Positions 41,413 to 63,438 of a stretch of DNA of 64,000 bases are shown here, one piece after another. Both the position numbers and the translations under genes were made by a program. This DNA is from an uncultured Clostridium sp. (GTDB taxonomy: Bacteria; Bacillota; Clostridia; TANB77; CAG-508). The notes below the pieces were generated by a model. It saw only the letters and a program-made list of their open reading frames with translations, did no database searches and had not been told where the DNA came from. The DNA is taken from assembly GCA_946545035.1 (NCBI GenBank), contig CAMNND010000001.1, positions 34,809-98,808 on the forward strand. Reading direction: 5' to 3'. Position 1 is the first letter of the stretch, and the number at the start of each line of letters is the position of its first letter.

Positions 41413-41463
41413 AAAAAAAATCAGGGTAGACATTTTTTATTTTGTCTACCCTTTTTTTATTTT
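41413..41463. terminator. Bidirectional rho-independent terminator (GGGTAGACA-loop-TGTCTACCC, flanked by A8 and T7ATTTT), separating the TGA-free nrd/replication block from the recoded operon
   Basis: 9-bp perfect inverted repeat with flanking A/T runs, seen directly. Confidence 0.65.
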
Positions 41464-41938
41464 AACAAATTTTTTTAGCATACTGATTAGAACTTGCCAA
41501 GAACACTCCTAAAGTTTCATCATAATAAGAAGGCTGATTAGGAATAAATCTTCCAAATTTAATTATAATATTTTTAAATAATCTTTTTAATACTTGAATT
41601 TCATAATCAAGTTCTTCTTCGGTATATCCAGTATAAATAACAATATCATCTTTTGTATATTCTCTAAATACTTTTATTAGTTGATAAAGATCATGCTTTG
41701 AATCAAAAGGCTCTAATCCTTGAAAAACAATAGCATTAGTTATATTATTTTCCATATAAGTTTTTACAATTCTAATTATGGAAATATCTTCATTAGGACT
41801 ATTTACTAAATCAGAATTCTGACATACTTTTTGTCCGCATTCCTTATCACATTTAAAATCACAATAAGGAAATTCAATTACCATAGAAGGTTTTTTATAA
41901 TTAACAAAATCCTCAAAAATAATTCCTTTAATTTTCAT
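41462..41938 (-). CDS. nrdG: NrdG-like anaerobic ribonucleotide reductase activating protein candidate (158 aa, Cys cluster CDFKCDKECGQKVC)
   Basis: Track ORF. Adjacent and translationally overlapped with nrdD. Cys-rich N-terminus. The assignment rests mainly on context, and the Cys spacing is atypical. Confidence 0.4.
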   Translation of the reverse strand: MKIKGIIFEDFVNYKKPSMVIEFPYCDFKCDKECGQKVCQNSDLVNSPNEDISIIRIVKTYMENNITNAIVFQGLEPFDSKHDLYQLIKVFREYTKDDIVIYTGYTEEELDYEIQVLKRLFKNIIIKFGRFIPNQPSYYDETLGVFLASSNQYAKKIC

Positions 41939-43841
41939 TTAAATTATCCCATTGACGAAGATTAAATTCTGCTTTACGTTGTTTAGAATAGCTACGTGTT
42001 GGTGTGTAGAATCCAACTACACGAGTATATTCAGTTTCGACTGGTTCGCCGCATACTGGACAAACTTTACCATAGAAACTATGATAATTCTTGCATTGAG
42101 CTACTTTACCATTAAAGGCAAAATATGTTACGCCTTGCTGAGCAACCCAATTAAGCATATGCCAGGCTTGATCAAAGTTAGTAAAAGGAGCATCTACATT
42201 AATATGTTCAATAGATCCACCGTTGCAATAACTATCAAATGCGGCACAAATTTTTGTTCTCTCTTGGATTGTAGCTTTAATTCCAAGAGGAATCCATTGA
42301 TTACCATAGAGAGGAAGATCTTTTACAACCTGCTCAGGATATAGATATTCATCTGCCTTTTGGAGTTTAACTGCGGCCTGCTCTGCGGGAACTTGTTCGA
42401 TATTGATTTTATAATCTTTATCTAATGCAAAGTTATCAATACAATTTTGAATTACTTTGAAAATACGCTGACCAAGATCATATGCTTTGTCTGTATAACT
42501 ATAATTTCCAAAGTCATCTACTTCTGTATAACCAAAAGTCTTCATAGTTTCGAAGATACCATTAACGCCAACAGTAGAATACATAGCATCAAGATTCATT
42601 AGTCCGCAAGATATATTAGGTAGTAAACCTTTCTCAACATTGCGGGTAATAATATGACGCTGAACATCAAGAATTTTTAGATTAAGTTTAGTTAAATCAC
42701 GAAGCTTAACTAAGAAATCTTGTTCACTCTCACTCTGATATGCAAGACGAGCAATATTAAGAGTAGATACTTTCGCAGATCCTACTTCAAGTGCGGTACC
42801 ACCAATTGAATTAAAATAAAGATCTGTAATATCACTCTTTAGACGGCAACAATTAGAAAGGCTGTTGACAGTAGAATCAGTAAAGAAATTAAATATATTC
42901 CATTTGCGGGAAGCTTCACAAGCCCACTTTGCAAAATCTTCATCTACAAATTTACCATCCTGATAAAGTAAAGAAGCAGTAAGAACAGGAAAAGTAAAAA
43001 TATTTTCTTCACGAATTTCGTTGACTACATCAATAAAGTCTTTCTGGAACTCAATAATTTCCTCTTCTTCATCAATCATAAAACTACCATCAGGGAATTC
43101 TCCACCACCAAAAATAGCTTCAAAGTAAGGATGATCAAATACACTTACATTAGTAAATGCCGCTTGATCAGAACGTACCCAGGGTTGATTTAGACGATGA
43201 ATTAAAGCCTGAATCTGTTGCCTCTTATAAGTCTCAGGGTCTTTAGTATAATATCCCTGAGCTACATCACGACTCCAATAGTAGTAAAGATATGGAATTA
43301 GATTAGGTAGGCCGCAAGCTCCAGATTGTCTGCGGCTAAGGAAAGCAATCGCTTCCATTAAGATTTGAATAAAACTGTCAAGATGTTTTGCGGGCTTAGC
43401 ATTATATCCCTGAATAAAGAATAATCCTTTTTCTGCTATTGGTTTAATATCATAAGCAAAACAATAAGGAACTAGAGTTGCTGTATTAAAATCATGCATA
43501 TAAAGGCTATATGACCACATAGCTTCCATAGCTTCATTAGCAACTTTATATCCATACTTCTTATTAATCTCGTAATAAAGTTTATTAAATACTAATAGTT
43601 TTTGATCTGGTTTTGACATTTCAGAAAGTAAAGTTACAATATCTTTCTGTGCGATATTAGCATTTGCATCAATAGAGGTATTAGCTACGTTGTCTGAATC
43701 AATAAAACCTTCAATAAAATCAGTAAAACTAAGAGTAGCTTCATCAAATCCCTGAAGTTCTAGAAATTCTTCTCCATATTTCTCAACCATTTTATTAAAT
43801 TGAGTTTGAAAATTTTTATTTAATTTAACATTTAATTTCAT
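41928..43841 (-). CDS. nrdD: Anaerobic ribonucleoside-triphosphate reductase (class III RNR, NrdD; 637 aa): C-terminal Zn-ribbon CPVCGE and glycyl-radical-type motif TRVVGFYTP
   Basis: Track ORF, no TGA. Length and C-terminal motifs are characteristic of NrdD. Confidence 0.6.
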   Translation of the reverse strand: MKLNVKLNKNFQTQFNKMVEKYGEEFLELQGFDEATLSFTDFIEGFIDSDNVANTSIDANANIAQKDIVTLLSEMSKPDQKLLVFNKLYYEINKKYGYKVANEAMEAMWSYSLYMHDFNTATLVPYCFAYDIKPIAEKGLFFIQGYNAKPAKHLDSFIQILMEAIAFLSRRQSGACGLPNLIPYLYYYWSRDVAQGYYTKDPETYKRQQIQALIHRLNQPWVRSDQAAFTNVSVFDHPYFEAIFGGGEFPDGSFMIDEEEEIIEFQKDFIDVVNEIREENIFTFPVLTASLLYQDGKFVDEDFAKWACEASRKWNIFNFFTDSTVNSLSNCCRLKSDITDLYFNSIGGTALEVGSAKVSTLNIARLAYQSESEQDFLVKLRDLTKLNLKILDVQRHIITRNVEKGLLPNISCGLMNLDAMYSTVGVNGIFETMKTFGYTEVDDFGNYSYTDKAYDLGQRIFKVIQNCIDNFALDKDYKINIEQVPAEQAAVKLQKADEYLYPEQVVKDLPLYGNQWIPLGIKATIQERTKICAAFDSYCNGGSIEHINVDAPFTNFDQAWHMLNWVAQQGVTYFAFNGKVAQCKNYHSFYGKVCPVCGEPVETEYTRVVGFYTPTRSYSKQRKAEFNLRQWDNLNEN

Positions 43842-43851
43842 GTACTACTCC

Positions 43852-44085
43852 TTAAAACTTGCAACTATCGCAGTCAGCATCCATTTTTGCTTGTTCATTT
43901 AGCCAAGTAACTGCAGTCACAAAATCCATATAATCGTCGCCAAGTTTAAGAACAGGAGCAGACATAAAACCTTTATCTATAACTTCTTGAATATCAGAAC
44001 TCTTTTCATAAGCAATATTATTTTGATTTAATTTATGCTCTAATACTCGACATTTAGGGCATTCAGTAGAAAATAATGTTAACAT
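43852..44085 (-). CDS. nrdH: NrdH-like glutaredoxin/thioredoxin-fold redoxin (77 aa, CPKC active site)
   Basis: Track ORF. CxxC motif near the N-terminus. Located in the nrd cluster. Confidence 0.5.
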   Translation of the reverse strand: MLTLFSTECPKCRVLEHKLNQNNIAYEKSSDIQEVIDKGFMSAPVLKLGDDYMDFVTAVTWLNEQAKMDADCDSCKF

Positions 44086-44175
44086 AAATCTCCTATCATT
44101 CTATATAAAATAATTTTTTTCTTACCTATAAAATATCTTTTTCGTTAATCATATTATTTATTTTTGCCCAAATAT

Positions 44176-44538
44176 CTAAGACCAGTAACTATTGAGATAT
44201 TCTTCTTCATCTTTTCTCTTTTGCTCTCTATCCTTAGCTGTTCGCTTTAAAGTATTTACAAACTTATCCCAGTTTATTTTTTGGAAATCTTTAGCTAAAG
44301 CGATTCTTCAATCTGAATATCCGATAGTTACTGCCCCTGTTTCTTCATCTAATTCTAAATAATCTCCCTCATATAAATAATGAATTTTTGTATCTGTAAA
44401 ACTGTATTTAAAAGTCATAAAAAAGGTAATAGCGGCATTCTCACGAATTTCTTCAATCAATCCCTGATGGGCTAATTCTTCTACCCACCAGGGAATACTT
44501 GAATCTCCAATAAAATATTTAGTTTTCATCATCACCAC
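44176..44538 (-). CDS. Hypothetical protein (~120 aa) inside the replication block that contains one in-frame TGA (track ORF 44308-44538 extended to TAG ~44176)
   Basis: Start overlaps the polymerase gene end (RBS ggagaaagtgg). Frame stays open 44 codons past the TGA to TAG. No gene in the window uses TGA as stop. Confidence 0.4.
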
Positions 44539-47500
44539 TTTCTCCCCATCTCCATGCTGTCATATCTATTGTACCATTATTTTTTACTTCTGTCAAGATA
44601 CGATAACATTGATGTGATTTCGTATGACGATATGACTTAGTGAAGAACATTCCTGATCTTTTAAATCCATTAAACATTAACAAAGTTCCACGAGTAAACC
44701 AACCTTTTTCCATCACTTTTTTTGTTCCATCTGGTTGGACCTGACTCATTTGTCGATTCAATCTTGCATAATAATCTCGACTCATTTTAACTGTAACTAC
44801 ACCACTTTCTGGTGTAAGAATACTTACACAAGATTTATTATCTTCTTTTGCAACTACTGCACCAACAATTCGACAAGTTTTAAATAATGGAATATCAACA
44901 CCATTACGTTTAAAAGTTTTATCTACTGGCGGATTATCTGGTAAACTATTATAAGCTTTTACATTATATGCTAACTTATCAAGTTTCTTCATTGGATGAT
45001 CATGATAATAAAAACCAAGACTATCCATTTCCCAAGTTGACAATGTACCTGCCGCATATTTATTCCAGACTTCATCAAACAAAGTTTGATTTAGTTTCTG
45101 TAACATTTCATCTTGATGTTCCCGCAAATAATCTCGAGCTTTATCCATACCTTTTGTATAAAGTTTTTGCCAAACTTTTTGATCAATTGCAATATTACCA
45201 TCATAAATAGTAGTTAAATCTACATCAAAAAATTCTTCATAAAACTCATAAAAATTATCTGGAAGTGTGTAAACGTTATCTACTTTACAGAATTTCCGCA
45301 AAGCCTTATTAAATACAAATAATCTTTTTTCAAAGCTAAGACTATCTGGAATTAAATTTCTTTCCATCAAACCGTTAAAATTTTGAAGAGTTAATCTCTT
45401 TTTTGGTTCACAAATTGACCAAATATATTCCCGCATAATATCTTCTCTATTACCAAACTTATCAAAAGCTCCACTCTTAATAAGTGAAATCAAAACTGGT
45501 TTCTTAACTTTTACTCTCTCTTGGAAATCATTAAAACTTTCATATGGACGATTTTCAATAATATCTTGAATAATTTCTCCACCTACTCCATTTAAGCCTT
45601 TCATTCCAAAAAGAATACTACCAGTTTCAACATCTGGTTCAAACATATATCCCGATTTATTAATATCAATTAATGACATTGGAATACCACGATGAATAAT
45701 ATTACCTACTGCTTTCGCAATCTTACCATAATTACTACTTGCATCTTCATCAAGTCCCGCATCAACTCTGAGACATGCCGTATTCCAATAGACAGGATCA
45801 AAATAAGTTGCAAGATAAATTGTTTGTAATCCTACAAAACTATACGCTAAACTATGAATAAGTGAAAAAGAATATCCCATTTGCGGTTTAATTGCAGTTT
45901 CCCAAACATATTCGCCAAGTCTTTGATTAACTGCTTTACTCAAAACTAACTCATGCAATTCTTCAATTCGATTCATTTGCTTCTTTGCACAAATCTTGCG
46001 GGCATCATTTGCTTCTTTAAGACTAAATCCACAAATATCTGGATCCATCAAAATCATCATCATATCTTCTTGCTGTGCAGGCGTCGCATAAGTTTCAAGA
46101 TAATATTTCTCTAATGTCTTTTGATCTACTTCCCGCAAATGCCATCTTGACATTTCATCATACCAACGAGACATATTATCTTTCATTCTTTTATATCTCT
46201 CAGTTGGTGTCTCTCCACCCTTTTCTGCGGCCATCAATCTCATTACAGAATTACAGTTTGCCATTTCGCGTGGTGACCTTGGCCGCAATAATTTTACAGT
46301 TTGACTTCCAACTTGACTATCAAACTGGAAAAGTTTCAATACTTTACCCTCAGCAAGAACATTCCACATTTTATCATCATCTATTGGAAGAACATCTGGA
46401 TGAAGATATTTATCATACAATTGCCGCAAACTTAAATCTTGATCAACCTCATTATATTCACTCAACATATTAAGACATTGAACGATTACATCCTGAATTT
46501 CTGTTACAAGAAAATCGAATTTAACATCTCCGCAATATTCCGCATCATGAAGTGAAAATTGAGTTACAATTGCTCCACTTGTTGCTTTCATAAAACATGC
46601 ACTATCAAATGGATCATTCATATAAAAATTTACACCACTTGCGTGAATACCACGATGATTAATCAATCCTTCAATCTTCTCAATAATTTCAAGAAGCCCC
46701 GGATATTTTCTAACTTCCGCTAGAAAATTCTTTACTGGTTTACGATCTTTTTCTTCATTACCATAAACCAAATCATGAACCGGCCAAACAAATCCGCGCT
46801 CACTTGGTGCAAGACTTGTCATATACTGAGCTACATCATTATCAATTCCATCTGGAAAATCTTTTGAACGATAACCACGACAAGCTGTTGAAATTGCTGA
46901 ACGTGTTGTCTCTGTACCATATGTACAAACTTGAACGCATCCAAGTTGACCAACTTCTTCACGAATTGATTTAAAAATTTCTTCTCTCTTGGATGGGCAA
47001 ATATCAATATCAATATCGCCCAACTCAATACGTTCTTTATTACTATATCTCCAATAGGGAAGATTATACTTAATTGGATCAAGTTGAGTAATTCCTAGAA
47101 GATAATGATTTAATCCAGAACACGCGGAACCTCGTCCCGCGCCTACAGTTGAACCAATCTCCCAAAATGAATCAATGTAATGCTGAAGAAAAATTGGATA
47201 TGCAAACATGCAAGTTCCAAGTTTTTCTCCAATTACTTTTTGAATATCTGCTTCTTCTTCAAGTCGCGCAAGATAAACATCATTGAACAAATTAAGCTCT
47301 TTAAGTTTATCACAACAATAATTAACCCAATATCTTTCTTGCGGATTATCACTTGAATACAAATAATCCAAAGTCTTATAACCCATCTTTGACATTACTT
47401 TAGGATAATCTTTTACTGGAACTTGCGGGACTTGCTGTTTATGTGCGAAACCAAAATCTTGAATTTTACTTTTTACTTCCAAAGTATTTGCTTCAAGCTC

Positions 47501-48343
47501 CGCATAATCAAGACCAGTTCCTTCAAGATTCTGAATTACCTCTTCTGTTGTTTGAAGATACGCATATGCATAAAATTCATCTACTTCTCGATCACCCTGT
47601 TTTGAGTTAAGAAATGCTTTATGAACTTCTCGATCACTCTTCTTCAAATAATGAGCATCAGTTGTTACTACAATCTTAACTCCAAAATAATCACTCAGAG
47701 CTTTCATTCGACGATTAACAATCATCTGCTCTTTACTTTGAGCTGGCTGAATCTCAAAATAATAATCGTCTCCAAATACAGACTTGCACCAATTTACAAA
47801 ATCTACAATCCTATAATAATATTCAGCCTTGCCTTCAAGATTACCAACTCTCTCAGCTTTATCCATTTCAAGAATACAATAATCAAGTTCTGAACCAAGA
47901 CATGCAGATGATGCAATTAAATGGCCTTTACCAAATTCATCTACACATGCCATTACTTCTGCTTTGAGAGTTGGCACTCTCTCCATACCTCTATCAAAAT
48001 AACTATTCATCCAAGAATTTGATGACAGTTTCCGCAACATTTTTGCACCAATTGCATCTTTTGCAATTAAAATAAAGTGCCAATATCGCTGTCCACTTCC
48101 ACGTTCATCAACAAGATAAATCTCATTACCATACCCAATTTTAAAATCTGGATTCTTCTCTTGGACTTTCTGTCTAATCTGGTCAAGCTTAACCCAATTA
48201 CCTAACGCTTCATGATCAGTCAAACAAATACCTTCAAGACCAATTTCTACGGCATAATTAACAAGAGAATCAACTGTATTAATACAATCGATAAGACGGA
48301 TATTTGACATATCACTGTGTGAATGCATTTCAAAACGCGCCAT
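44519..48343 (-). CDS. DNA polymerase III alpha-type (family C) replicative polymerase (1274 aa; N-terminal PHP domain MARFEMHSHSDMSNI..D), TGA-free
   Basis: Track ORF with RBS aaggagaaagagg. PHP-domain N-terminus and size typical of DnaE/PolC. Confidence 0.6.
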   Translation of the reverse strand: MARFEMHSHSDMSNIRLIDCINTVDSLVNYAVEIGLEGICLTDHEALGNWVKLDQIRQKVQEKNPDFKIGYGNEIYLVDERGSGQRYWHFILIAKDAIGAKMLRKLSSNSWMNSYFDRGMERVPTLKAEVMACVDEFGKGHLIASSACLGSELDYCILEMDKAERVGNLEGKAEYYYRIVDFVNWCKSVFGDDYYFEIQPAQSKEQMIVNRRMKALSDYFGVKIVVTTDAHYLKKSDREVHKAFLNSKQGDREVDEFYAYAYLQTTEEVIQNLEGTGLDYAELEANTLEVKSKIQDFGFAHKQQVPQVPVKDYPKVMSKMGYKTLDYLYSSDNPQERYWVNYCCDKLKELNLFNDVYLARLEEEADIQKVIGEKLGTCMFAYPIFLQHYIDSFWEIGSTVGAGRGSACSGLNHYLLGITQLDPIKYNLPYWRYSNKERIELGDIDIDICPSKREEIFKSIREEVGQLGCVQVCTYGTETTRSAISTACRGYRSKDFPDGIDNDVAQYMTSLAPSERGFVWPVHDLVYGNEEKDRKPVKNFLAEVRKYPGLLEIIEKIEGLINHRGIHASGVNFYMNDPFDSACFMKATSGAIVTQFSLHDAEYCGDVKFDFLVTEIQDVIVQCLNMLSEYNEVDQDLSLRQLYDKYLHPDVLPIDDDKMWNVLAEGKVLKLFQFDSQVGSQTVKLLRPRSPREMANCNSVMRLMAAEKGGETPTERYKRMKDNMSRWYDEMSRWHLREVDQKTLEKYYLETYATPAQQEDMMMILMDPDICGFSLKEANDARKICAKKQMNRIEELHELVLSKAVNQRLGEYVWETAIKPQMGYSFSLIHSLAYSFVGLQTIYLATYFDPVYWNTACLRVDAGLDEDASSNYGKIAKAVGNIIHRGIPMSLIDINKSGYMFEPDVETGSILFGMKGLNGVGGEIIQDIIENRPYESFNDFQERVKVKKPVLISLIKSGAFDKFGNREDIMREYIWSICEPKKRLTLQNFNGLMERNLIPDSLSFEKRLFVFNKALRKFCKVDNVYTLPDNFYEFYEEFFDVDLTTIYDGNIAIDQKVWQKLYTKGMDKARDYLREHQDEMLQKLNQTLFDEVWNKYAAGTLSTWEMDSLGFYYHDHPMKKLDKLAYNVKAYNSLPDNPPVDKTFKRNGVDIPLFKTCRIVGAVVAKEDNKSCVSILTPESGVVTVKMSRDYYARLNRQMSQVQPDGTKKVMEKGWFTRGTLLMFNGFKRSGMFFTKSYRHTKSHQCYRILTEVKNNGTIDMTAWRWGESGDDEN

Positions 48344-48374
48344 ATAACCTCTTTCTCCTTAATTTTCTATATTA

Positions 48375-48403
48375 ATTATACCATATTATTTTGTTCTTGT
48401 CAA
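48375..48403 (-). promoter_or_regulatory. Consensus sigma70-type promoter on - strand (TTGACA-17-TATAAT) upstream of the polymerase gene
   Basis: - strand reads TTGACAagaacaaaataatatggTATAATtaatatagaaaattaaggag..ATG. Confidence 0.6.
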
Positions 48404-48412
48404 TATTTATAA

Positions 48413-48664
48413 CTATCAATCTGGTTTTGTATTATAAAAAATAATATTATGAGACTCTTCATATTCTTTTATTTTTAATTTCAATGTATCTATTTTATCT
48501 TGTGTAGATTTTAATTGTCGATTTAAATTATTAATTTCTCATTCTAATTCAAATTTTGTTCTTTTATATATATCTAGCATAGTTAAATTTTGACAATGTT
48601 GCATTGCATCAGATAATTCTTCAGAAGATTTACATTGTCGTGTATCAAAACCATAAGAAGACAT
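48413..48664 (-). CDS. Small coiled-coil ORF (~83 aa) translationally coupled to the RecJ-like gene (TAATG), with 2 in-frame TGA (one as penultimate codon before TAG)
   Basis: Hand translation: ATG shares one nt with the upstream TAA. Open to TAG ~48413 if TGA is sense. Would be a 40-aa peptide in the standard code. Confidence 0.35.
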
Positions 48665-50439
48665 TAAAATACCCATTTCTCATTGATATAAAAATCTTCA
48701 ATAATAAGTTGTGCAGTCACATTTCCATTCCACTCATTTCTCGAGCAACGACACACCGCAGTAAGATACATATTAGGTCTAGTAAATTGTTCAAATTCTT
48801 CTTGTGAAGATTTAAACTTCATAATATCTACACCATTTGATAAATGTATCTTCAGTGTAGGGTGCTTATCTGGTGAAAGAAGTTGGACAGAAGTTAAAGG
48901 AATATCTTTAATTGCAATATATGGTTCAGGCAATCCTTGTCCCCAAGTAGATTTATTCTGCGCAATCATTAGAATTTTTTGAGGATCAATATCTTTATTA
49001 AACCACTCAAAATCAACCCAGTATACAGGCTCCTGCGCGGCCTCACTATAGACTGCATTTGTCTTTTGAATAAAATCATCTAGTTTAGACTCAGGTATAG
49101 AAATTCCGAAAGCTGAACTATGGCCCTGTGCATACTCTACGTCACCAGTATTTTCACAGAGCTGCCGCATATCCTCTATTTCTGACATGGAATAATTTCT
49201 GGCACTTCCTCTATAAAAATACTCTTTATCGTCTTTCCCCTTTGATCTTGTGAGGACAAGACATGGGTGCTGATATTTCGCTTGAATCTTATTGGCGACC
49301 AAACCTGCGAGATTTTTTTCCACTTCTCCGGGTTCGCAGCAACAGACAATAATACCATTTTCTGTCAATCGTTCAGATTGAATTCGCTGTTCGAGCAAAT
49401 CCATTGCAGCATCTTGGAGCTTTGTTTGTCGAGCTTTGACGTTAGCTGCAATTCTAACTGCTTCTTCAACTCTTGGTACAAGTTCTCCTTTATGACCACG
49501 TTTACCACTCTCAATCTTATCAAAAGCATAGAATTTTAACATCGATTTAAAAATTAAATCTTTCTCTTCCATAGTGCCAGAACGTACAATAGCATTAATA
49601 AATGGAGTTACATAAAAAGCCATTGACATATAATTAATTCCGCCCATTTTATCAATACTAAATTTATTTTTTTCACACATATAATAGAAGAATGGATTTT
49701 TAATATTCTGTAAGCCCATATCAATAATAGCTTTAGTTTCTATACTACGATAATCCATCATATCAGACAAGTTTCCAAGAGCTGCTAAATCTAAATATTG
49801 ATTAGCATAATCAAAATTAAAAAATAAATCAAAAGCTTTACAAATTTGCCAAGTAACGCCAGCTCCAGATAAATCTTTATTAGGATAATCACAAATTTGA
49901 TTATTAATAATAATACTTTGATCTGTATCAAGCCAATTATCAGATTCATGATGATCCATACATAAAATAAATTTATCCGCATCAATTAAACGTTGCATTT
50001 GTTCAACATCGTTAGTTCCTGCGTCTGGAATAATGATAAACTTTGTTTTTTCATCTTCAAGTAATTTTTCAACGGTATCTTCAAGACCATGTTGTTTTCC
50101 ATCATGTAAAATATATTTTAAATTTGGAATAATTTCTTCTTTAGAAAATTTATAACTATATAAATCATACATATAATTTAAAAAAATAGCTGCACTTGTA
50201 AACCCATCTGCATCTGCATCTACTACTACAGTTAAAGGTATATTGCAATACATAGCATGAGCCATTACTTGCATTATCTCAGCCACTTTCTTTTTACCAA
50301 AAGCAAATGGTGAATTTAAATCACTCCAAAAAGAGGCATTAATCCATTTATCTTGATCTTCTTTTGTCTTTATTCCACGATTATATAATATTTGCCGCAT
50401 CGTTCCTAACGTAGGTTCATTAAATAGTTTATAAATCAA
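48664..50439 (-). CDS. RecJ-like DHH-family phosphoesterase/ssDNA exonuclease (591 aa; DADADGFTSAAIF and CMDHHES motifs)
   Basis: Track ORF (TTG start with RBS aagggag). DHH motifs recognised. TGA-free. Confidence 0.5.
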   Translation of the reverse strand: MIYKLFNEPTLGTMRQILYNRGIKTKEDQDKWINASFWSDLNSPFAFGKKKVAEIMQVMAHAMYCNIPLTVVVDADADGFTSAAIFLNYMYDLYSYKFSKEEIIPNLKYILHDGKQHGLEDTVEKLLEDEKTKFIIIPDAGTNDVEQMQRLIDADKFILCMDHHESDNWLDTDQSIIINNQICDYPNKDLSGAGVTWQICKAFDLFFNFDYANQYLDLAALGNLSDMMDYRSIETKAIIDMGLQNIKNPFFYYMCEKNKFSIDKMGGINYMSMAFYVTPFINAIVRSGTMEEKDLIFKSMLKFYAFDKIESGKRGHKGELVPRVEEAVRIAANVKARQTKLQDAAMDLLEQRIQSERLTENGIIVCCCEPGEVEKNLAGLVANKIQAKYQHPCLVLTRSKGKDDKEYFYRGSARNYSMSEIEDMRQLCENTGDVEYAQGHSSAFGISIPESKLDDFIQKTNAVYSEAAQEPVYWVDFEWFNKDIDPQKILMIAQNKSTWGQGLPEPYIAIKDIPLTSVQLLSPDKHPTLKIHLSNGVDIMKFKSSQEEFEQFTRPNMYLTAVCRCSRNEWNGNVTAQLIIEDFYINEKWVF

Positions 50440-53722: not shown

Positions 53723-53752
53723 ATTATAACATATATTTCTGTTTTTGTCAAA
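53723..53752 (-). promoter_or_regulatory. Sigma70-type promoter on - strand (TTGACA-18-TATAAT) immediately downstream of the tRNA, driving 53690->
   Basis: - strand reads TTGACAaaaacagaaatatatgtTATAATtaattgat...aaaggagtttaATG. Confidence 0.55.
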
Positions 53753-53884: not shown

Positions 53885-54106
53885 CTAAAAATTAAAAGTT
53901 ATTTGAATAAAAGTTCCATTAATATCTTGATAATTAGCAACTACATATAATCCCTTTTGATCTTCTGTAGATTGAGATGTATCGTAATTAAGATACCAAT
54001 GATCGAATTCTAAATTATGATCTATAAGAAAATCATTAATTTCATCTATAGTTTTACAATTCTTGATCTGAGCAAGCTCATTGCCAATATTCATTCTATA
54101 GCCCAT
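53885..54106 (-). CDS. Hypothetical protein (73 aa)
   Basis: Track ORF. TAG stop abuts the tRNA 5' end. Confidence 0.4.
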   Translation of the reverse strand: MGYRMNIGNELAQIKNCKTIDEINDFLIDHNLEFDHWYLNYDTSQSTEDQKGLYVVANYQDINGTFIQITFNF

Positions 54107-56119: not shown

Positions 56120-56148
56120 ATTATATAATATATTTTATTGTTCGTCAA
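56120..56148 (-). promoter_or_regulatory. Sigma70-type promoter on - strand (TTGACG-17-TATAAT) overlapping the 3' end of the ThyX-like gene, driving the SSB/Sak4 unit
   Basis: - strand reads GTTGACGaacaataaaatatattaTATAAT. Confidence 0.5.
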
Positions 56149-56808
56149 CTGCATTTTCTTGAGCTAGGTTAGGAAATTCTCCAGTAATCCATTCTTGCAT
56201 TGGAAGCGTATGAACCCAATTAACAAAGTCTTCACGCCAGCCTGAGAGACGATGATTCTTACGTTGATTATACATGGTACGAAGAACTTGATAATTAAGA
56301 CTTACCATACGAGTCTGGAGAAAACCTTCAGGAAGCATAGCTTTAATCTTCTCAAAATATTGTTCTTTAATATCTCCTGGTTCAAGAGTTTTATATAATG
56401 CAATTAATTCATTAATAACATTTATATAATTATGCATAGCTTCATTTGCCATTTCATCTTCACCAAAAGTGAAATAAAAATCTTCTGGCTTAACACCATC
56501 ACGCATTAGAGTGTGCATAGTAGATTGACTATTAGCAGTAGTACCAATCTTATAAGTATCCCATTCACTCCACCAGAAACGTGGTGCAGTAATATTTACC
56601 CACACACCAATCTGACGAAGAAACTTAGCATGTTCTGGACTACCAGCTTCACAAAGACGCTTAGCTAGATTATAGTCATTAATGCCAATATGGAGATTAC
56701 CATCTTCATCATACCCAGTATCAGCTTTGTCATATGATTTAAGAGGATGACGCATACCTGCGATAGCAGGAGCAAACCCCGCAATTTCTACTGTTTGAAA
56801 ATTAATCA
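56135..56808 (-). CDS. ThyX(Thy1)-family-like protein (~224 aa from ATG 56808) lacking the canonical RHRxxS catalytic motif (has APRFWWSEWDTYKIGTTANSQS instead)
   Basis: Track ORF 56135-56860. A better start is ATG 56808 with RBS aaaggggaaca, overlapping ATGATTAA with the upstream stop. Resemblance to ThyX helices (..[21 protein letters not shown].. / ..TRFFW..NARSL.NFL.LR) recalled from memory. Confidence 0.35.
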
Positions 56809-57785
56809 TTGTTCCCCTTTGTTTGATTATATCCAATAGCATTTGAATTGTATAATTCAATAAAATATTTTTCTTTTTCGTTTAATTGACTAGCATCACA
56901 TTCCAAGAGAAGTTCAAAAGAAAAAGAATCTAATCCATATTCTTGCATTGCAGCATATAATTGATTTCCTTGCGGCGTATCAATACCTAATCCTGCTTTA
57001 CAATGATCCATTCATCTGCGGCGAACATCTACAGCTTGACCTATATAACATTCACCTGTCTCTTGATTCGTAATTTTATAAATGCCGCACACATCAGTTT
57101 TACCTAAGATCTTAGGAAATTTTTTCTTAGCAATAGGTGTATAATAAGCTTGTCATATTGCCATTAAGATTGATCTAGGTTTTGCAATTTTTTTAGCAAC
57201 TTCTCGCAATATTTCTACATCATTAGCTTCTTCTCTTGGAAGAATAAGACAATAATCATCTTTAGTTTCTTGAATTTCTTTTTCTCTTTTAGCTGCTTCA
57301 ATTGCGGCCGCACGAGTTGCTTTTAAAGATTCCAACTGTTCTTTTTCAGTTTGAATATATTCTGTTAAAGTCTTTAATGTTATTGCATAATATTCTTCTG
57401 AATCTTTAAAATCTTTTTTTAATTCTAAAAGTTTCTTTTGATATACAGCATCAGCTTTTTCATTTGCCAATTGCTCAGATTGAGCAATAAATTCTTGAGC
57501 TTGTTTATTAGATTCTTCGATAAGCTCTTTTTCTTTTTTAATAGAAAATAATTGATCTTGCATAGAATTAATTTCATTTGAATAGTCTGTAATTTTATTT
57601 ACAAGACTTTCATGAATACCGTTTAAAGTATTAATATCTTTTTTTAATAACTCTCGCTCTTCTCAAAATTTTTGATTGCTATCTTGTATTGGCTTAACTG
57701 TGCGGCAACCTAGTGTATAACAAAATCAAGCAAGAATTATATCTATAATAAATATAGTAATAGGAATTATTATATTTCAATTCAT
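56802..57785 (-). CDS. TGA-recoded 327-aa ORF: N-terminal TM anchor (IIIPITIFIIDIILAWFCYTLG), central coiled coil, C-terminal GIY-YIG nuclease domain (GIYKITNQETGECYIGQAVDVRRR-W(TGA)-MDH...GYN). 5 in-frame TGA; it would be split into 3 fragments in the standard code.
   Basis: Track ORFs 57153-57563 and 56802-57011 plus 74 upstream codons form one frame with no TAA/TAG over 327 codons. A TGA sits at the conserved RW position of the GIY-YIG motif (cf. I-TevI FEKRWKRH). Confidence 0.5.
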
Positions 57786-57789: not shown

Positions 57790-57828
57790 AAATAGCGGAG
57801 ATAAGATTAATCCTACCTCCGCTCTCCT
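57790..57828 (-). terminator. Rho-independent terminator on - strand after the regulator gene (AGCGGAGGTAGGATT-AATCTTATCTCCGCT then ATTTTATT)
   Basis: Long imperfect hairpin + U-run, read on the - strand. Confidence 0.5.
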
Positions 57829-57850: not shown

Positions 57851-58099
57851 TTACTCTTTATCTGCATTAGGATCAGCAGTAACACCATCAGCAGTAAGAC
57901 GAATAAGCTTATCTTTCTGATCCTCAACAGCCTCACGAACAACTAGACCCTTACGCTGTAGACCATTAAGAACACCAGTAATAGAACGACCCTCAATATC
58001 AAGAGCAGCTGCAATGTCCTTAGAAGTTAGATCTTCACCCTCATGAGCCTGAAGGAAAGTTAGTACTGCCTGAGCTTTGTCTGAAAATAGTTTAGCCAT
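57851..58099 (-). CDS. Small winged-helix (MarR/ArsR-like) transcriptional regulator (82 aa) heading the - strand early block, downstream of two tandem consensus promoters
   Basis: Track ORF with RBS gagaaaaggagtctcatt. HTH-like segment LTSKDIAAALDIEGRSITGVLNGLQRKGLV. Confidence 0.45.
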   Translation of the reverse strand: MAKLFSDKAQAVLTFLQAHEGEDLTSKDIAAALDIEGRSITGVLNGLQRKGLVVREAVEDQKDKLIRLTADGVTADPNADKE

Positions 58100-58213: not shown

Positions 58214-58242
58214 ATTATATCATTTAATTTATTTTTTGTCAA
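58214..58242 (-). promoter_or_regulatory. Sigma70-type promoter P1 on - strand (TTGACA-17-TATAAT), tandem with P2, upstream of the regulator gene
   Basis: - strand reads TTGACAaaaaataaattaaatgaTATAAT. Confidence 0.6.
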
Positions 58243-58251
58243 ATAAAATTT

Positions 58252-59376
58252 TTAAGAAAAAATTTCTTCGTACTTACAATCTTCGGGATCTTTATCCTCT
58301 CGCATACGAATAAACACTGGGTGCCGCAATGCACCGTCTTTAGTGGTAGACATTGCTTCACACTCTACAACATGACCAATATAATTGTCAGGATTTTGCG
58401 CCATATCTTCTCGTATAGCATCAGTAAAACCAGAAGCTACACGACCTACTTCTACAAGTTCACCATTCTTATAAAGACCTAGAGTCATAGCATTTTTCCA
58501 ATTATTATACCAAGGCTTAGTAACAGGTTGATAAATATGAGGATTTTGTTCATAATCTTTATAATGATACCCATATAGAGGATACCATTGGAAAGCACCA
58601 TTTTGATCTTGTTCACCACGTTCAATCCAATATTGCCAAGTTTCAATTTCTTTACCCGTATAAATGCGAATTGGATCTTCTAGACCAATACAAACAAGAT
58701 CAATGCTATCCATATGTTGCTTCATCTTAAAATAGGTCTTTGTAGGACGTTTGCCTGGTTCATAAATAGCATCAGCCTTTTTAAAGACCATCCCCTCTCC
58801 ACCATTGCTTAGAATATCATGAAGAGTTTGTTCAAAATTATCTGTATAAACATGAGCCATTTCTACATAAACATTAATATCTTGTTTATAAAACCAATCT
58901 TGGAATTTTTTAAAACGAGCTACGAAACCAGTATTGCAAAAGTCAATACCATCAAAGCGAATGACATCAAATACATAGTAATGAATAAAGCCACCGTAGC
59001 CTTGTCCTTTTTGTCTTGCAATTGCATTTTGTGGTGTACACCCCATAATCTTAGTTACATCATTACTTTTACCGCCAGGAACATAAATTTCACCCAATAA
59101 GACAGTATCGTCTGGAAGAGATTTTGCCCATTCTATAATATGTGGAACATTAGCACTTTTTTCTACAAGTTCACCCGTTTTACGAGATTTAGTTCTTGCA
59201 AATAAATAAATATGATCATTATCAATTTTCTCTAGCATATAAAGTGCACCATCATATTTTTGTTGTGCTACCCATTGACCATTACCTTTAAAAGCTTCAT
59301 CAATAAGTGCTTGGGATGGTTTACCATTATATTTCATTGGATCGAGTTGGTAGCTACCCGGATAAAGTTCACTCAT
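58252..59376 (-). CDS. ATP-dependent DNA ligase (374 aa; adenylation motif I KYDGAL)
   Basis: Track ORF with RBS aaaggagaa. KxDG motif ~40 aa from the N-terminus. TGA-free. Confidence 0.5.
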   Translation of the reverse strand: MSELYPGSYQLDPMKYNGKPSQALIDEAFKGNGQWVAQQKYDGALYMLEKIDNDHIYLFARTKSRKTGELVEKSANVPHIIEWAKSLPDDTVLLGEIYVPGGKSNDVTKIMGCTPQNAIARQKGQGYGGFIHYYVFDVIRFDGIDFCNTGFVARFKKFQDWFYKQDINVYVEMAHVYTDNFEQTLHDILSNGGEGMVFKKADAIYEPGKRPTKTYFKMKQHMDSIDLVCIGLEDPIRIYTGKEIETWQYWIERGEQDQNGAFQWYPLYGYHYKDYEQNPHIYQPVTKPWYNNWKNAMTLGLYKNGELVEVGRVASGFTDAIREDMAQNPDNYIGHVVECEAMSTTKDGALRHPVFIRMREDKDPEDCKYEEIFS

Positions 59377-59399
59377 AAATTCTCCTTTCTTTTAAATAT

Positions 59400-59428: not shown

Positions 59429-59445
59429 GTCCCTTTTAAAAGGAG
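59411..59445. terminator. Rho-independent terminator (A7-GGGACTT-GTAA-AAGTCCC-T4) after the topoisomerase A gene
   Basis: 7-bp stem with A/T runs on both sides, seen directly. Confidence 0.55.
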
Positions 59446-61577
59446 AGCCGACTTCCTTTTCCAGCTCTATGTTGGACTGGTAAAGTTTTTGACATAGTTC
59501 CCACATTAATTTGAATAACGGTTGCTCCTTCATTGAGAGTAATACCTTTAACACCCTTTGCAGTTTTTCCAACAGGATTAATCTCGTCAAGTTTAAATTG
59601 GATACCCATTTGATCTGAGGTAATCAGCGTCATGTAATCTCCATTTGTTTCTCCAAACCAGATGAATGAATCACCTTCATTAAGCCCCGCACACTTCATA
59701 CCACGTTTATTCTGAGTACTACCAATAAAGATAGTCTTATCAGATTTCTTTACTAGACCTTTTTTAGTTACACCTGTAATATAAGGATGCTTTTGATCAA
59801 TATTCATATTGGTCATATAAAGAATCTTTTCATTAGGCTCAAGAGAAAGAATTGCCCCAAGAGCAGTACCCTTATCGGTAGTTGCGCATTGTTTAATTTC
59901 ACTAACTTTTAGACGATACATCTTCCCAAGAGAAGAGAATAGTAGAATAATATCATCTGTGCGGGCCTTCACTTTTTCAATGTTAGTCTTAGTTTCACGA
60001 TAAGCTTTAATAGGAATACTCTTAATATATCCCTGCGTTGTGCGGACTACAATAACATCTTCAATGATAAGCTCTTTCGCTTTTCTCGCCGTAGATGTTT
60101 TAGGAATATCCTTTTGAATTACAGCTGTGCGGCGTTTATCACCAAACTTTTTAACCAAATCCCGCAAACGCTCTGCAAGAATTTCAGTTTGCTTTTTATA
60201 AGATCCAATTACCTCTTGACAAGTTAGAGCTAATTGTTTCTTCTCTTGGAGCTCATTTGCAATTGCGATTTGATCCATATTAGTAAGACGGCTTAGAGTC
60301 ATCTTGAGAATAGCATCGGCCTGTTCAAAACTTAGCTGATACTTCTCACAAAGATTAGTCGCTGCAATTGACTTATTTTTACTACTCTTAATAAGTTCAA
60401 TTACATTATCAATATCTTCTAGTGCAATTGAAAGACCTTCAAGAATATGAATACGCTTTTGTGCGGCTTCAAGATCATATTCGTACTCACGCTTAATACA
60501 GCCAGTATTGTGCTCAATGTAAGTATCCGCATACTTTTTCAATGTAATCATAATTGGAGTTTTGCTAATAATTCCATTTTGATTAGCATTAAATTGTTTG
60601 CGTAGATTAGTAGCCGCAAATAACTGAGCTACAACTTTAAGAGGTTGAATTCCTGGCGCGCAAGTAACAACAAGTGAGATACGTTTTTTATCAGATTTGT
60701 TATATACATCTGCAATGCCAGTAACTTTCTCTTCTTCAATTGCCTTTTTAATTTCGTCAATTATTGGCTCAATAAAGACTTGATAAGGCAATTCATAAAA
60801 ATCAATTTCATGCCCACTAATGTTAAACTTACTTTCAATTATAACTTTACCTCGACCCGTCTTATTAATTGCGGCAAGTTCATCCTTATTAATAATTGTT
60901 CCGCCAGTGGGGAAGTCAGGATAAAAATTATCTTCATCTAGTTCTCCGGTTTCAATATAACGAAGGAGAAGTTCTGCGGACTCACTGAAGGAGTGTGGAA
61001 GCCATACATTCGAAAGAGAAACTCCAATTCCTTGAGCTCCGTTGACGAGAAGTCTTGGGAAGATGGCAGGCAATACTGTGGGCCATCTATCATCTTCGCT
61101 GAAATTGGGTTGCATTGGTACAACAGATTTTTCAATATTTCTAAGCATTCCTTCTTCGACAATTGAGCTAAGTCGAGCTTCTGTATATCGATCTGCGGCG
61201 ATTGCGTCCCCTCCGAGGATGACGTTACCATTTGATCCATGAAAATCTACCTCCGGTATATTATTTGTAAAAGGCTGAGACATACGAGCAAAAGTCTCAT
61301 AAATTGCAGTAGTTCCGTGCGGCCACCACAATGCAGCAACTCCGCCAGAAATCTTTGCAGACTTTACATGGGGCTTTTTACTAGTATATTTTTTAGTATA
61401 CATTTCCCAAAGACAAGCTCGCTGTCCCGGTTTGAGACCATCGCGAATATCTGGGAATGCACGATTAGTATTAGTATCATAACTACTATCAATAAAGTTC
61501 TGCTGAACCTCACTGATAATGTCAATTTCATTAATCAACTCGGGCCTCCTCAAGATGTTGTGCGAGGAATTGAACAC
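59436..61577 (-). CDS. Type IIA topoisomerase subunit A (GyrA/ParC-like; 713 aa; DGLKPGQRA and active-site AADRYTEARL). The start is probably TTG ~61539 (RBS gaggagg), overlapping the upstream stop, rather than the track's GTG 61577.
   Basis: Track ORF. Conserved GyrA-box-like DGLKP motif and catalytic Tyr context. TGA-free. Confidence 0.55.
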   Translation of the reverse strand: MFNSSHNILRRPELINEIDIISEVQQNFIDSSYDTNTNRAFPDIRDGLKPGQRACLWEMYTKKYTSKKPHVKSAKISGGVAALWWPHGTTAIYETFARMSQPFTNNIPEVDFHGSNGNVILGGDAIAADRYTEARLSSIVEEGMLRNIEKSVVPMQPNFSEDDRWPTVLPAIFPRLLVNGAQGIGVSLSNVWLPHSFSESAELLLRYIETGELDEDNFYPDFPTGGTIINKDELAAINKTGRGKVIIESKFNISGHEIDFYELPYQVFIEPIIDEIKKAIEEEKVTGIADVYNKSDKKRISLVVTCAPGIQPLKVVAQLFAATNLRKQFNANQNGIISKTPIMITLKKYADTYIEHNTGCIKREYEYDLEAAQKRIHILEGLSIALEDIDNVIELIKSSKNKSIAATNLCEKYQLSFEQADAILKMTLSRLTNMDQIAIANELQEKKQLALTCQEVIGSYKKQTEILAERLRDLVKKFGDKRRTAVIQKDIPKTSTARKAKELIIEDVIVVRTTQGYIKSIPIKAYRETKTNIEKVKARTDDIILLFSSLGKMYRLKVSEIKQCATTDKGTALGAILSLEPNEKILYMTNMNIDQKHPYITGVTKKGLVKKSDKTIFIGSTQNKRGMKCAGLNEGDSFIWFGETNGDYMTLITSDQMGIQFKLDEINPVGKTAKGVKGITLNEGATVIQINVGTMSKTLPVQHRAGKGSRLSF

Positions 61578-63438
61578 GGGGTTCTACTCGCTTGCCGTAT
61601 AGATCTTGGAACATTTTATCAGTCTTACCATAATCTTCAACTTTAAGTTGAAGTACATTACGAGTCTCAGGATCAAGCAAACAATAACTAAGCTCGTCAC
61701 TGTCCTGCTCACCAAGACCTTTCAAACGACCAATAGACTGAACTTGAGCTCCATGTTCCTTTTGATATGCTGCAAGTGCTTCTGCATCTCGCAAATAAAC
61801 ATATTCATTTTTCTTTGTAGTTACACGAAACAGTGGCGGAACTGCAGAATATACATGACCATTAGTAATTAGCTCTGGACACATATACCAAAGAATATTA
61901 AACAAAAGATTTTCAATTGCAAATCCGTCAAAGTCTGCGTCGGCCGCAGCAATAATCTTACCATAACGAAGTTTCTTTTCGTCATATGTAAGTTTACAAG
62001 TTCTTTCATCTACGTCAAGTCCAAGAGCTTGAACTAAATTATTGATCTCTTGGTTCTTATAAATATTTGTAGATGCGGTCTTGAGAACAGAAAGCATTTT
62101 ACCACGAACACCATAAATAGCCTGAGTCTCACTGTCTCGTCCTGCAACTAGACCTGCGGCAGCAGATTTGCCCTCACAGACAAAGAGCTCACATTTGCTA
62201 CGATCTTTACTCCAACAATCTGTAAGAGTAGTAGGAAGCTGAATTGCTTTAGCCTTTACAGGTGCCGCAGCTTTAGCCTTTACACGCTCTCGAGCTTTCT
62301 TTGCAGCTTCCGCAGCTTTGCGAGCAACTAAGGCTTTTTCAATAATGTTTTTACCATCTTCAACATTATTATCTAGCCAAATTTCTAGCTGCTCTCCAAG
62401 AGTCGAAGAAATGAAACTCGTATCAATCTTAGTAATTGTAGTCTTTACTTGCGCATCATATGCAACACCTTCTGCGGTAATATTAGCTACAAGTACCATA
62501 CCCTCTTGAAGAGATGAACCATCAAGATTTTTATCTTTAGCTTTAAGAATACCCTGCTCTTTTGCCCACTTATTAAGAATACGAGTAATAGTAGACTTAA
62601 TTGAAGTGATATGCGGCCCCGCAGATGTAAGTCCGCAATTAACATAAGGAACAATAGTAGAACTACCACGAGTAGTATAACTCATTGCTAGAGAGATAGC
62701 CTGCTTATCTTTCCTCTCTTGGATAATTAGAGGATTATTGATAATCTCAATATCTTTTCCAAGATGTTTTGTAAGCAAATCTTGTATTCCATTTTCATGT
62801 TTAATTTCTTGTCCATTAAACATAATAATAAGACCAGGGCAAAGACATGTAATATCTTCACAGAAATTAAGCAATTTCTTTTGATTGACTTGCGGAGTAT
62901 CAAAAAATTCTTCACTCGGCGTAAAACTAACTAATGTACCACTTGGATGATCTTCTTTGCCAGTTTTTCTTTTTTTGAAAATGCCTTCTTCAAAGTAAAT
63001 AGATTCATATTCACCTTTGGCATTCCATGAGCTAACAAAAAGATTATGACTAAGAAAATTAGTTAGCTTACTACCAATGCCATTTAAGCCAATTGCAGTT
63101 CCTTCATATACACCATCGTCACGATATTTTCCTGATGTATTAATAACGTCAAAAGATGCTTGAAGAACAGTTTCTCCATCTTCACGTATAACATTTATTG
63201 GAAAGCCTTGCCCTGCATCTTCAATTGACACTATTTGATTATTTACAATAACAGTAATTTTATTACCATGACCAATATTATATTCATCAATTGCATTGCC
63301 AAGAATCTCAATTGCCAACTGAGTTGCATCGCTAGTGTCACCGGCGTACATACCTGGCCGCAAACGAACATGTTCTCTTGGTGACAAAGATTCAATACTA
63401 TCATCTTTATAAAGGTTATCCATTAACCCTCCTTTCAT
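61531..63438 (-). CDS. Type IIA topoisomerase ATPase/TOPRIM subunit B (GyrB/ParE-like; 635 aa; EGKSAAAG TOPRIM and GVRGKMLSV motifs)
   Basis: Track ORF with RBS aaaggaggg. GHKL ATPase N-terminus and TOPRIM EGxSA. TGA-free. Confidence 0.55.
   Translation of the reverse strand: MKGGLMDNLYKDDSIESLSPREHVRLRPGMYAGDTSDATQLAIEILGNAIDEYNIGHGNKITVIVNNQIVSIEDAGQGFPINVIREDGETVLQASFDVINTSGKYRDDGVYEGTAIGLNGIGSKLTNFLSHNLFVSSWNAKGEYESIYFEEGIFKKRKTGKEDHPSGTLVSFTPSEEFFDTPQVNQKKLLNFCEDITCLCPGLIIMFNGQEIKHENGIQDLLTKHLGKDIEIINNPLIIQERKDKQAISLAMSYTTRGSSTIVPYVNCGLTSAGPHITSIKSTITRILNKWAKEQGILKAKDKNLDGSSLQEGMVLVANITAEGVAYDAQVKTTITKIDTSFISSTLGEQLEIWLDNNVEDGKNIIEKALVARKAAEAAKKARERVKAKAAAPVKAKAIQLPTTLTDCWSKDRSKCELFVCEGKSAAAGLVAGRDSETQAIYGVRGKMLSVLKTASTNIYKNQEINNLVQALGLDVDERTCKLTYDEKKLRYGKIIAAADADFDGFAIENLLFNILWYMCPELITNGHVYSAVPPLFRVTTKKNEYVYLRDAEALAAYQKEHGAQVQSIGRLKGLGEQDSDELSYCLLDPETRNVLQLKVEDYGKTDKMFQDLYGKRVEPRVQFLAQHLEEARVD

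Follow-up and report, generated by a model that had tools for sequence, protein, structure and literature searches.

Replication genes free of in-frame TGA in a gut-lineage phage that reads TGA as tryptophan

We analyzed a 64,000-nucleotide stretch of contig CAMNND010000001.1 (assembly GCA_946545035.1, positions 34,809 to 98,808; hereafter the window), which covers roughly half the genome of a ~125-kb phage of a rumen/gut lineage, and found that its replication genes are devoid of TGA, a codon that this phage reads as tryptophan. The recoded codon was concentrated in the presumed virion and lysis genes (146 TGA, 66 TGG) and absent from the replication machinery (0 TGA, 80 TGG), a difference with a Fisher P value of 4e-31. 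We consider it likely that the phage infects a standard-code host, in which the TGA-free replication genes are made before a suppressor tRNA with the anticodon UCA, tRNA(UCA), accumulates, while the TGA-containing genes yield full-length protein only afterwards.

The window is AT-rich (33% GC), and calling of open reading frames (ORFs) with TAA and TAG as the only stops resolved two convergent gene blocks, one on the plus strand (241-38503) and one on the minus strand (38547-63986). Coding density, taken as the share of sequence under ORFs of at least 150 amino acids, was 0.59 for the whole window with genetic code 11, 0.91 with code 4 and 0.63 with code 15. It rose from 0.47 with code 11 to 0.91 with code 4 over positions 1-38500, and was 89% with the standard code versus 91% with code 4 over positions 41462-63438. 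Because the gain under code 4 is absent only from this last interval, TGA is needed as a sense codon everywhere else. TGA occurred in 30 of the 48 called ORFs, spread evenly within genes, and the ORFs free of it formed a contiguous set. When orthologs from 19 related IMG/VR loci were aligned, window TGA stood opposite TGA 185 times, opposite TGG 89 times and opposite other codons 30 times, and site-by-site tables revealed conserved tryptophan positions that switch between TGA and TGG from ortholog to ortholog. TGA encodes tryptophan in the genome of this phage.

All 13 enzymes named in the original prediction, which had been made from the sequence and its ORFs, were intact and had no in-frame TGA (Table 1). 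Their identities were backed by profile matches to Pfam or PHROGs, the NrdH-like ORF being assigned from its CPKC motif only. Two additional ORFs in 41462-63438, encoding a YorH-like protein and a MarR-like winged-helix protein, were likewise TGA-free. Where roughly 6,200 TGA-free codons with dozens of tryptophans had been predicted, 6,246 codons with 80 TGG were counted in 14 minus-strand ORFs; inclusion of the NrdH-like ORF (77 codons, one TGG) and a 45-codon extension of topoisomerase subunit A (TopoA; one TGG) brought the set to 15 ORFs, ~6,370 codons and 82 TGG. For the genes with 0-2 tryptophans (NrdG, NrdH, MarR-like, YorH-like, primase and Sak4), absence of TGA is uninformative when taken alone. 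We also searched for N-terminal extensions that depend on TGA, and found no TGA between the upstream in-frame TAA or TAG and the start of any enzyme; each enzyme gene ended in TAA or TAG. Since TGA serves them neither as a sense codon nor as a stop, the enzymes read identically in both codes. Codon bias cannot account for this absence. The G-ending fraction of the other two-fold purine-ending codons was 0.296 in the enzymes versus 0.154 in the other genes compared, and even at 0.296, which would still predict mostly TGA, the probability of finding TGG at 80 of 80 sites is ~5e-43.

TGA-using ORFs are interleaved with these enzymes. Of four small ORFs that had been proposed to stay open through in-frame TGA, all exist at about the positions proposed and three are real genes by their conservation. 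The ratio of nonsynonymous to synonymous substitution rates (dN/dS) was 0.11-0.29 against nine orthologs for 44176-44532, whose TGA at codon 75 stands opposite TGG or TGA; 0.34-0.66 for 56802-57785, in which the tryptophans at codons 211 and 258 are kept as TGA or TGG; and 0.27-0.59 for 63738-63986, both of whose TGA codons stand opposite TGG in relatives. The second of these, at 327 codons, is not small. The fourth, 48413-48676, had two close orthologs only (91-97% identity, dN/dS 0.65-0.75), and its status as a coding gene is unproven. The ends of TGA-free genes are overlapped by TGA-using ORFs at the polymerase (44176-44532), RecJ (48413-48676) and ThyX (56802-57785), and the difference in TGA use is therefore specific to the gene and does not follow from position, strand or transcript. 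The claim that the partition follows gene class and not position thus holds in its second half; its first half holds only in part, since dUTPase (3 TGA, 0 TGG) and RuvC (1 TGA, 1 TGG) use TGA in the window and RecJ, ThyX and NrdD use it in relatives.

The extent of TGA avoidance across the clade was assessed by summing TGA and TGG over distinct orthologs from 17 loci whose code-4 signal was clear; relatives that look standard-code or code-15 (L011, L016, L019, L068, L069 and L077) were kept out of this count. Genes that were strictly or nearly TGA-free comprised those for the polymerase (0 TGA/222 TGG in 12 distinct orthologs), the YorF-like protein (0/49), Sak4 (0/19), ligase (0/24), TopoA (0/15), topoisomerase subunit B (TopoB; 0/17), DnaB (2/55), primase (2/24) and the YorH-like protein (1/14). 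A leaky group was formed by RecJ (27/70), ThyX (17/34) and NrdD (17/95), and a TGA-rich group by RuvC (34/3), hyp122 (42/8), the GIY-YIG ORF (19/3), endolysin (96/36), holin (4/0) and dUTPase (24/24). The TGA codons in RecJ, NrdD, ThyX, DnaB and primase orthologs are genuine tryptophan codons, since they align with TGG of the window; in RecJ, 10 of 11 code-4 orthologs carry TGA, every one aligned with tryptophan. The window, whose RecJ and ThyX are atypical within the clade in being TGA-free, is the sharpest version of a graded rule in which the replisome core is TGA-free throughout. Synonymous divergence (dS) of the polymerase gene reached ~0.8 among code-4 relatives with no change from TGG to TGA, which indicates that purifying selection keeps the replisome core free of TGA.

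Such conservation bears on whether the replication genes were recently recombined in from a standard-code relative or a cell, leaving no time for TGG to change to TGA, a form of the recent import that the original prediction had offered as an alternative. The clade is visibly mosaic. One relative, L001, matches most window genes at 99-100% identity and RecJ and the 118-aa ORF at only 89%, with two TGA in RecJ at positions where the window has TGG, a pattern (44176-50400) that points to recent recombination inside the replication block; another, the 125,498-bp genome IMGVR_UViG_3300021400_000244, is 98% identical in the polymerase and 82% in TopoB. The distant relatives listed above that look standard-code or code-15, the somewhat higher G-ending codon fraction of the enzymes (0.30 versus 0.15) and the existence of standard-code and TGA-recoded Agate phage genomes at >90% average nucleotide identity (Borges et al., bioRxiv 10.1101/2021.08.26.457843) also speak for exchange. 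The module itself is old, however. SPbeta-like Bacillus phages are the nearest cultured phages, YorL being 39% identical over 99% of the polymerase, and in tblastn comparisons the window genes were collinear with SPbeta yorF-G-H-I-J-K-L at 28-39% identity (E values 1e-11 to 0). Closer matches in bacterial genomes (65-89%) were only phage-sized contigs binned in metagenome-assembled genomes labeled 'Bacilli' or 'Bacillales', and the nearest cellular DnaE was 24-28% identical to the window polymerase. This collinearity at low identity, together with the distance to cellular DnaE, marks an old, vertically inherited phage module and refutes recent import in its strong form. Import would also have to contend with a polymerase that has stayed at 0/222 while neighboring genes flip freely between TGA and TGG, and with TGA-using ORFs that are embedded in the TGA-free genes, overlap them and are conserved in place. 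We regard module exchange as an improbable cause of the partition, and recombination with standard-code members of the clade could contribute to the pattern.

SPbeta (Spbetavirus) shares with the window the order YorF, YorG (Sak4), YorH, YorI (helicase), YorJ, YorK (RecJ-like) and YorL, a YosS dUTPase (55% identity) and a similar genome size. It differs in using the standard code, and no similarity between virion genes was detected. The phage of the window has NrdD and NrdG (anaerobic) in place of NrdE and NrdF and additionally carries topoisomerase II, ligase and ThyX. The interval 41462-63438 had no match among GenBank phages by megablast, and an exact-protein look-up of TopoB returned no record.

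Promoters were searched for in the window as TTGACA-N17-TATAAT with at most one mismatch, for which 1.8 sites are expected by chance. Thirteen sigma-70-type sites were found, all within 41379-63477 and none in 1-41000; 11 of the 13 had minus-strand orientation and immediately preceded the genes for TopoB, ligase, the MarR-like, YorF-like and YorH-like proteins, primase, the polymerase, hyp118 and hyp91. This distribution fits a replication block that the unmodified host RNA polymerase transcribes early, and the virion and lysis block, judged from the same sites, would have to use another kind of promoter or transcription mode.

A candidate suppressor was found in the 125-kb relative. Beyond TopoB, a nearly TGA-free divergent operon begins, encoding a radical-SAM protein, a metallophosphatase, an RNA ligase and a TROVE/Ro60-like protein, and is followed by an array of 13 tRNA genes that includes tRNA(UCA) at L046:17191-17287. 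The original prediction had asked about a tRNA(UCA) under late or middle control; in this relative the Glu-Met-UCA tRNA group is instead preceded, at a distance of ~200 nt, by a perfect TTGACA-N17-TATAAT. The suppressor would thus apparently be on from the start through host polymerase, and any delay in decoding would therefore have to come from accumulation of the tRNA and competition with release factor RF2. Neighbors of the tRNA array comprise the TROVE/Ro60-like protein, RNA ligase, metallophosphatase and a nuclease. The first three (L046:10001-11467, L022:3355-5628) are all TGA-free and look like an RNA-repair or RNA-quality-control set. An 80-nt match to the tmRNA family of Rfam was located at L046:19703-19782, and full tmRNAs are encoded on other contigs that carry tRNA(UCA) (L053, L054, L055 and L062).

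We propose that host RNA polymerase would first transcribe the replication genes from the strong sigma-70-type promoters, and that these genes, being TGA-free, would be translated to full length whether or not the code had yet been switched. Accumulation of the phage tRNA(UCA) would then cause TGA to be read as tryptophan, and the virion, lysis, homing-endonuclease-like and accessory ORFs that contain TGA would become full-length only at that point, even where they share transcripts with replication genes. The standard-code host, the order of expression and the timing purpose are what we infer. The early-gene strategy of the original prediction is borne out as far as the reading of TGA as tryptophan, the code-compatible enzymes, the avoidance kept in relatives, the sigma-70-type promoters and the tRNA(UCA) of a near relative are concerned; the gene-class rule and the role of TGA as a translational timer, with the suppressor behind an early-type promoter, fare less well.

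Several observations weigh against this sequence of events. Tolerance of TGA by dUTPase in the window and by RecJ, ThyX and NrdD in relatives makes the boundary between early and late genes graded and not sharp. The TGA-using genes from hyp91 to RuvC, and hyp118, likewise lie behind sigma-70-type promoters. Neither Rfam nor a tRNA scan detected a tRNA gene in the 64-kb window, the suppressor is seen only in a relative, and the early look of its promoter makes a strict switch less convincing. Neither the +4 nucleotide context of TGA codons nor their position within genes differed from background (P ~0.09-0.10), and there was no sign of selection for weak-termination contexts at TGA codons. Some of these points would suit a different cause, namely that the decoding of TGA is at all times less efficient or less accurate than that of TGG, so that proteins needed reliably avoid it whenever they are expressed. 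The strictest avoiders are indeed the most conserved, essential replisome proteins, the less critical RecJ, ThyX, NrdD and dUTPase are leaky, and an early-type suppressor promoter makes a clean temporal switch less obvious. Long and presumably abundant late proteins are nevertheless heavy in TGA, with 33 codons in the 3489-aa ORF, 17-18 in the 1723- and 1179-aa ORFs and 19 in the endolysin. Such use requires near-complete read-through after the system has come on, so that a decoding penalty alone is unlikely to have held the polymerase at 0/222, and we give the efficiency explanation a low likelihood.

The host is probably walled and Firmicute-like, as the multidomain endolysin (GH25, amidase and peptidoglycan-binding domains) and the Hol44 holin suggest a walled Gram-positive-type cell; the SPbeta-like replication module and the 'Bacilli' or 'Bacillales' labels on the phage-sized contigs are further pointers. 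If the host were itself a Mollicute-like user of code 4, the phage would merely follow its host and the TGA-free genes would have another cause. The AT-richness of the genome (33% GC, with GC at third codon positions of ~0.10-0.15 in late genes) resembles that of Mollicutes and their phages. The known code-4 bacteria of animal guts (Mycoplasmatales and Entomoplasmatales) lack peptidoglycan, and the phage encodes a multidomain peptidoglycan hydrolase and a Gram-positive-type holin. An SPbeta-like replication module, a relative carrying its own tRNA(UCA), and the restriction of TGA to 30 of 48 ORFs, with 15 ORFs (~6,370 codons) having none, also argue against a code-4 host; in host-matched recoded (code-25) phages, the recoded codon is reported to occur in ~90% of genes (Borges et al., bioRxiv 10.1101/2021.08.26.457843). 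A code-4 host is thus extremely improbable, and a standard-code host is preferred.

The idea that early genes are kept in the host code and that a switch then licenses the late genes was published by Borges et al. (bioRxiv 10.1101/2021.08.26.457843; later Nat Microbiol 2022), and the partition described here is a rediscovery of low novelty; the gene-by-gene gradient, the relationship to SPbeta and the mapping of promoter sites are increments on the published model. Agate phages resemble the present lineage in their ~125-127 kb genomes, their origin in cattle and other animal gut samples, and the reading of TGA as tryptophan. They share with the window the concentration of in-frame TGA in structural and lysis genes, replication machinery in the standard code, and a homing-endonuclease gene, placed among the early genes, with a strong preference for TGA, and with its clade a suppressor tRNA(UCA) and members with different codes. 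The endonuclease-like ORF differs from that of Agate in being free-standing, without a group I intron, and in its transmembrane and coiled-coil N-terminus. By size, rumen-type source, code and pattern, the window, which holds no terminase, most likely belongs to the Agate lineage or one closely allied to it. The crAss-like and Lak phages (TAG- or TGA-recoded) also use the recoded stop in late structural and lysis genes and carry suppressor tRNAs, and an early/late scheme of this kind has been put forward for them too; they differ in being unrelated lineages with Bacteroidetes hosts that mostly read TAG as glutamine, and Lak replication genes are mostly recoded too, unlike those of the window. 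In the Jade phage, a 'code-change module' joins tRNA-UCA with tryptophanyl-tRNA synthetase (TrpRS) and RF1, standard-code genes standing around the TGA suppressor tRNA. The 125-kb relative resembles it in that the genes adjoining its tRNA array are nearly TGA-free, and differs in that neither TrpRS nor RF1 was present in the ~51 kb examined near the array.

The coordinates of the features are collected in Table 1. We infer the structural label of the plus-strand block, whose ORFs include ones of 1723, 1179, 917 and 3489 aa; PHROGs and Pfam gave no functional annotation for its large proteins. About 25 TGA had been claimed for the endolysin, which has 19, and the claimed contrast with a TGA-free holin, present in the window, is not conserved, the code-4 holin orthologs having 4 TGA and no TGG (n = 4). 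A compositional island at 19560-33900 (GC 0.36-0.46 versus 0.23-0.30 in adjoining late genes) holds the repeat-rich 3489-aa ORF (19560-30029), in which TGA and TGG are close to 1:1 (33/35), and could be a receptor-binding or fiber module acquired by more recent exchange. In the distal part of the minus-strand block, TGA codons align with tryptophan codons of relatives (dN/dS 0.02-0.5). The true start of TopoA is probably a TTG at 61538, overlapping the TopoB stop codon; the 45 N-terminal codons (61403-61538) are homologous to the L022 ortholog and are preceded by a GAGGAGG ribosome-binding site before the TTG, and a start at the first ATG (61403) would drop these 45 conserved residues. The GIY-YIG domain of 56802-57785 matches homing-endonuclease families, and the ORF is kept at the same place in many relatives. 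Its layout is unusual for a homing endonuclease, in that a transmembrane helix at the N-terminus and a long coiled coil precede the C-terminal GIY-YIG domain, and an Rfam scan of the whole window detected no group I intron around it. The 125-kb relative has three insertions that are not in the window. Two are endonuclease-like ORFs that use TGA, the first separating TopoB from TopoA and the second separating the YorF-like gene from Sak4; the third is a tRNA-Ser gene pair that lies between the genes for Sak4 and the YorH-like protein. The early block is home to mobile elements, and these use TGA.

Table 1. Features of the window, with in-frame TGA and TGG codon counts; the last row lists insertions of the 125-kb relative.
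Feature	Position	Strand	TGA/TGG	Remarks
TGA-rich block, presumed virion genes ending in lysis cassette	241-38503	+	146/66	24 ORFs
Holin, Hol44 family (PF16079)	35234-35581	+	0/1	
Endolysin	36896-38503	+	19/3	GH25 muramidase, amidase/endolysin-like domain, peptidoglycan-binding
hyp220, RuvC, dUTPase, hyp88, hyp122, hyp91	38547-41355	-	14/2 together	distal part
RuvC	39184-39672	-	1/1	
dUTPase	39674-40138	-	3/0	55% identity to SPbeta YosS
Sigma-70 consensus promoter-like site	41379-41407	-		perfect; upstream of hyp91
NrdG-like activase	41462-41938	-	no TGA, no Trp	4Fe-4S
NrdD anaerobic ribonucleotide reductase	41928-43841	-	0/9	
NrdH/glutaredoxin-like ORF	43852-44085	-	0/1	77 aa
Conserved 118-aa ORF (hyp118)	44176-44532	-	1/4	overlaps polymerase stop codon by 14 nt
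DnaE-type (family C) polymerase, YorL-like	44519-48343	-	0/20	PHP, NTPase, finger and HhH domains
Sigma-70 consensus promoter-like site	48375-48403	-		perfect, with TG extension; upstream of polymerase
87-aa ORF	48413-48676	-	2/0	overlaps RecJ stop codon by 13 nt; no family match
RecJ-like exonuclease (DHH/OB), YorK-like	48664-50400	-	0/9	
Primase (Toprim), YorJ-like	50615-51682	-	0/2	
DnaB-type helicase, YorI-like	51695-53047	-	0/5	
YorH-like protein	53217-53690	-	0/1	
Sigma-70 consensus promoter-like site	53723-53751	-		perfect; upstream of YorH-like gene
AAA_24/Sak4-like, YorG-like	54096-55100	-	0/2	
YorF-like protein	55111-56079	-	0/7	'SSB-like' in the original prediction; SSB function putative
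ThyX-like thymidylate synthase	56135-56842	-	0/7	likely start M12 at 56809
327-aa GIY-YIG ORF	56802-57785	-	5/0	overlaps ThyX
Terminator-like hairpin	57794-57823			precedes GIY-YIG ORF
MarR-like winged-helix protein	57851-58099	-	no TGA, no Trp	
Sigma-70 consensus promoter-like site	58214-58242	-		perfect; upstream of MarR-like gene
ATP-dependent DNA ligase	58252-59376	-	0/8	
Type II topoisomerase A subunit	59436-61538	-	0/6	
Type II topoisomerase B subunit	61531-63438	-	0/5	
Sigma-70 consensus promoter-like site	63449-63477	-		11/12, with TG extension; upstream of TopoB
82-aa ORF	63738-63986	-	2/0	
Insertions of the 125-kb relative	L022:11889-12668, L022:19113-19859, L022:21060-21242			

The tRNA(UCA) of the lineage, which lies outside the window, has an unusual architecture. 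In the relative it is 94-97 nt long (L046:17191-17287, equal to L048:1069-1165). An exact search with its 22-nt anticodon arm returned one contig only, and a degenerate pattern returned 16 loci; similar genes are present on 15 other IMG/VR contigs (L049-L063), 12 of them of 69-230 kb, often adjoining an ordinary tRNA-Trp(CCA). What appears as a long variable arm aligns onto the anticodon arm of tRNA-Trp(CCA), so that two anticodon-type hairpins stand in tandem, the first with the loop CUUCAAA (anticodon UCA) and the second with CUCCAAA or GUCCAAA. The acceptor is Trp-like with the discriminator G73. A five-helix structure is strongly supported by covariation, with 98.6% of cells able to pair versus 35-47% in slid controls, double changes at 13 pairs, compensatory changes at 4 of the 5 extra-arm pairs and an invariant UCCAAA loop. 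Hairpin 1 has a canonical junction to the D arm and hairpin 2 a canonical 4-nt variable loop before the T arm; because both junctions are canonical, sequence does not decide which hairpin takes the anticodon position. Class II identities (tRNA-Sec or tRNA-Ser/Tyr) were considered and rejected, given the 7/5 acceptor/T branch, an extra arm that copies the Trp anticodon arm, and an acceptor AGGGGC... with G73 as in the neighboring tRNA-Trp(CCA). Phage UCA tRNAs insert tryptophan in E. coli extracts (PMC12636597). In the lineage described here, host TrpRS, which reads the CCA anticodon, would recognize the extra arm while the UCA arm would decode. It is conceivable, though we hold it doubtful, that the five-arm tRNA performs the code switch, with the extra arm serving as a decoy through which host TrpRS would still charge a UGA-reading tRNA with tryptophan, and that the strictly TGA-free replisome core would mark the proteins made while this tRNA accumulates. 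No description of a tRNA with a second anticodon-like arm was found in the searchable literature, and the architecture may be previously undescribed. In the same array, tRNA-Ile(UAU) (L046:16492-16582, 91 nt) has a small extra hairpin whose loop carries GAU, the major Ile anticodon; with a 3-bp stem in one sequence it could be chance, and if real would add another example of this design. Two of the contigs (L059:138-214 and L060:3898-3974) encode, beside the five-arm tRNA, a tRNA with the anticodon CUA (an amber suppressor, labeled 'Pyl' by ARAGORN), a combination that may let the phages concerned suppress two kinds of stop codon.

Taken as a whole, the partition is a textbook-quality example of a published idea and confirms it more than it extends it. 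The gradient, with a strict core, leaky RecJ, ThyX and NrdD, and TGA-rich RuvC, endonuclease-like and lysis genes, predicts in testable form which proteins the phage needs ahead of the switch. Only the five-arm tRNA found in the relatives may merit a study of its own. Its extra arm, if functional, would represent a new route by which a tRNA retains its amino-acid identity when the codon that it reads changes, and would bear on the evolution of the genetic code and on the engineering of orthogonal suppressor tRNAs.

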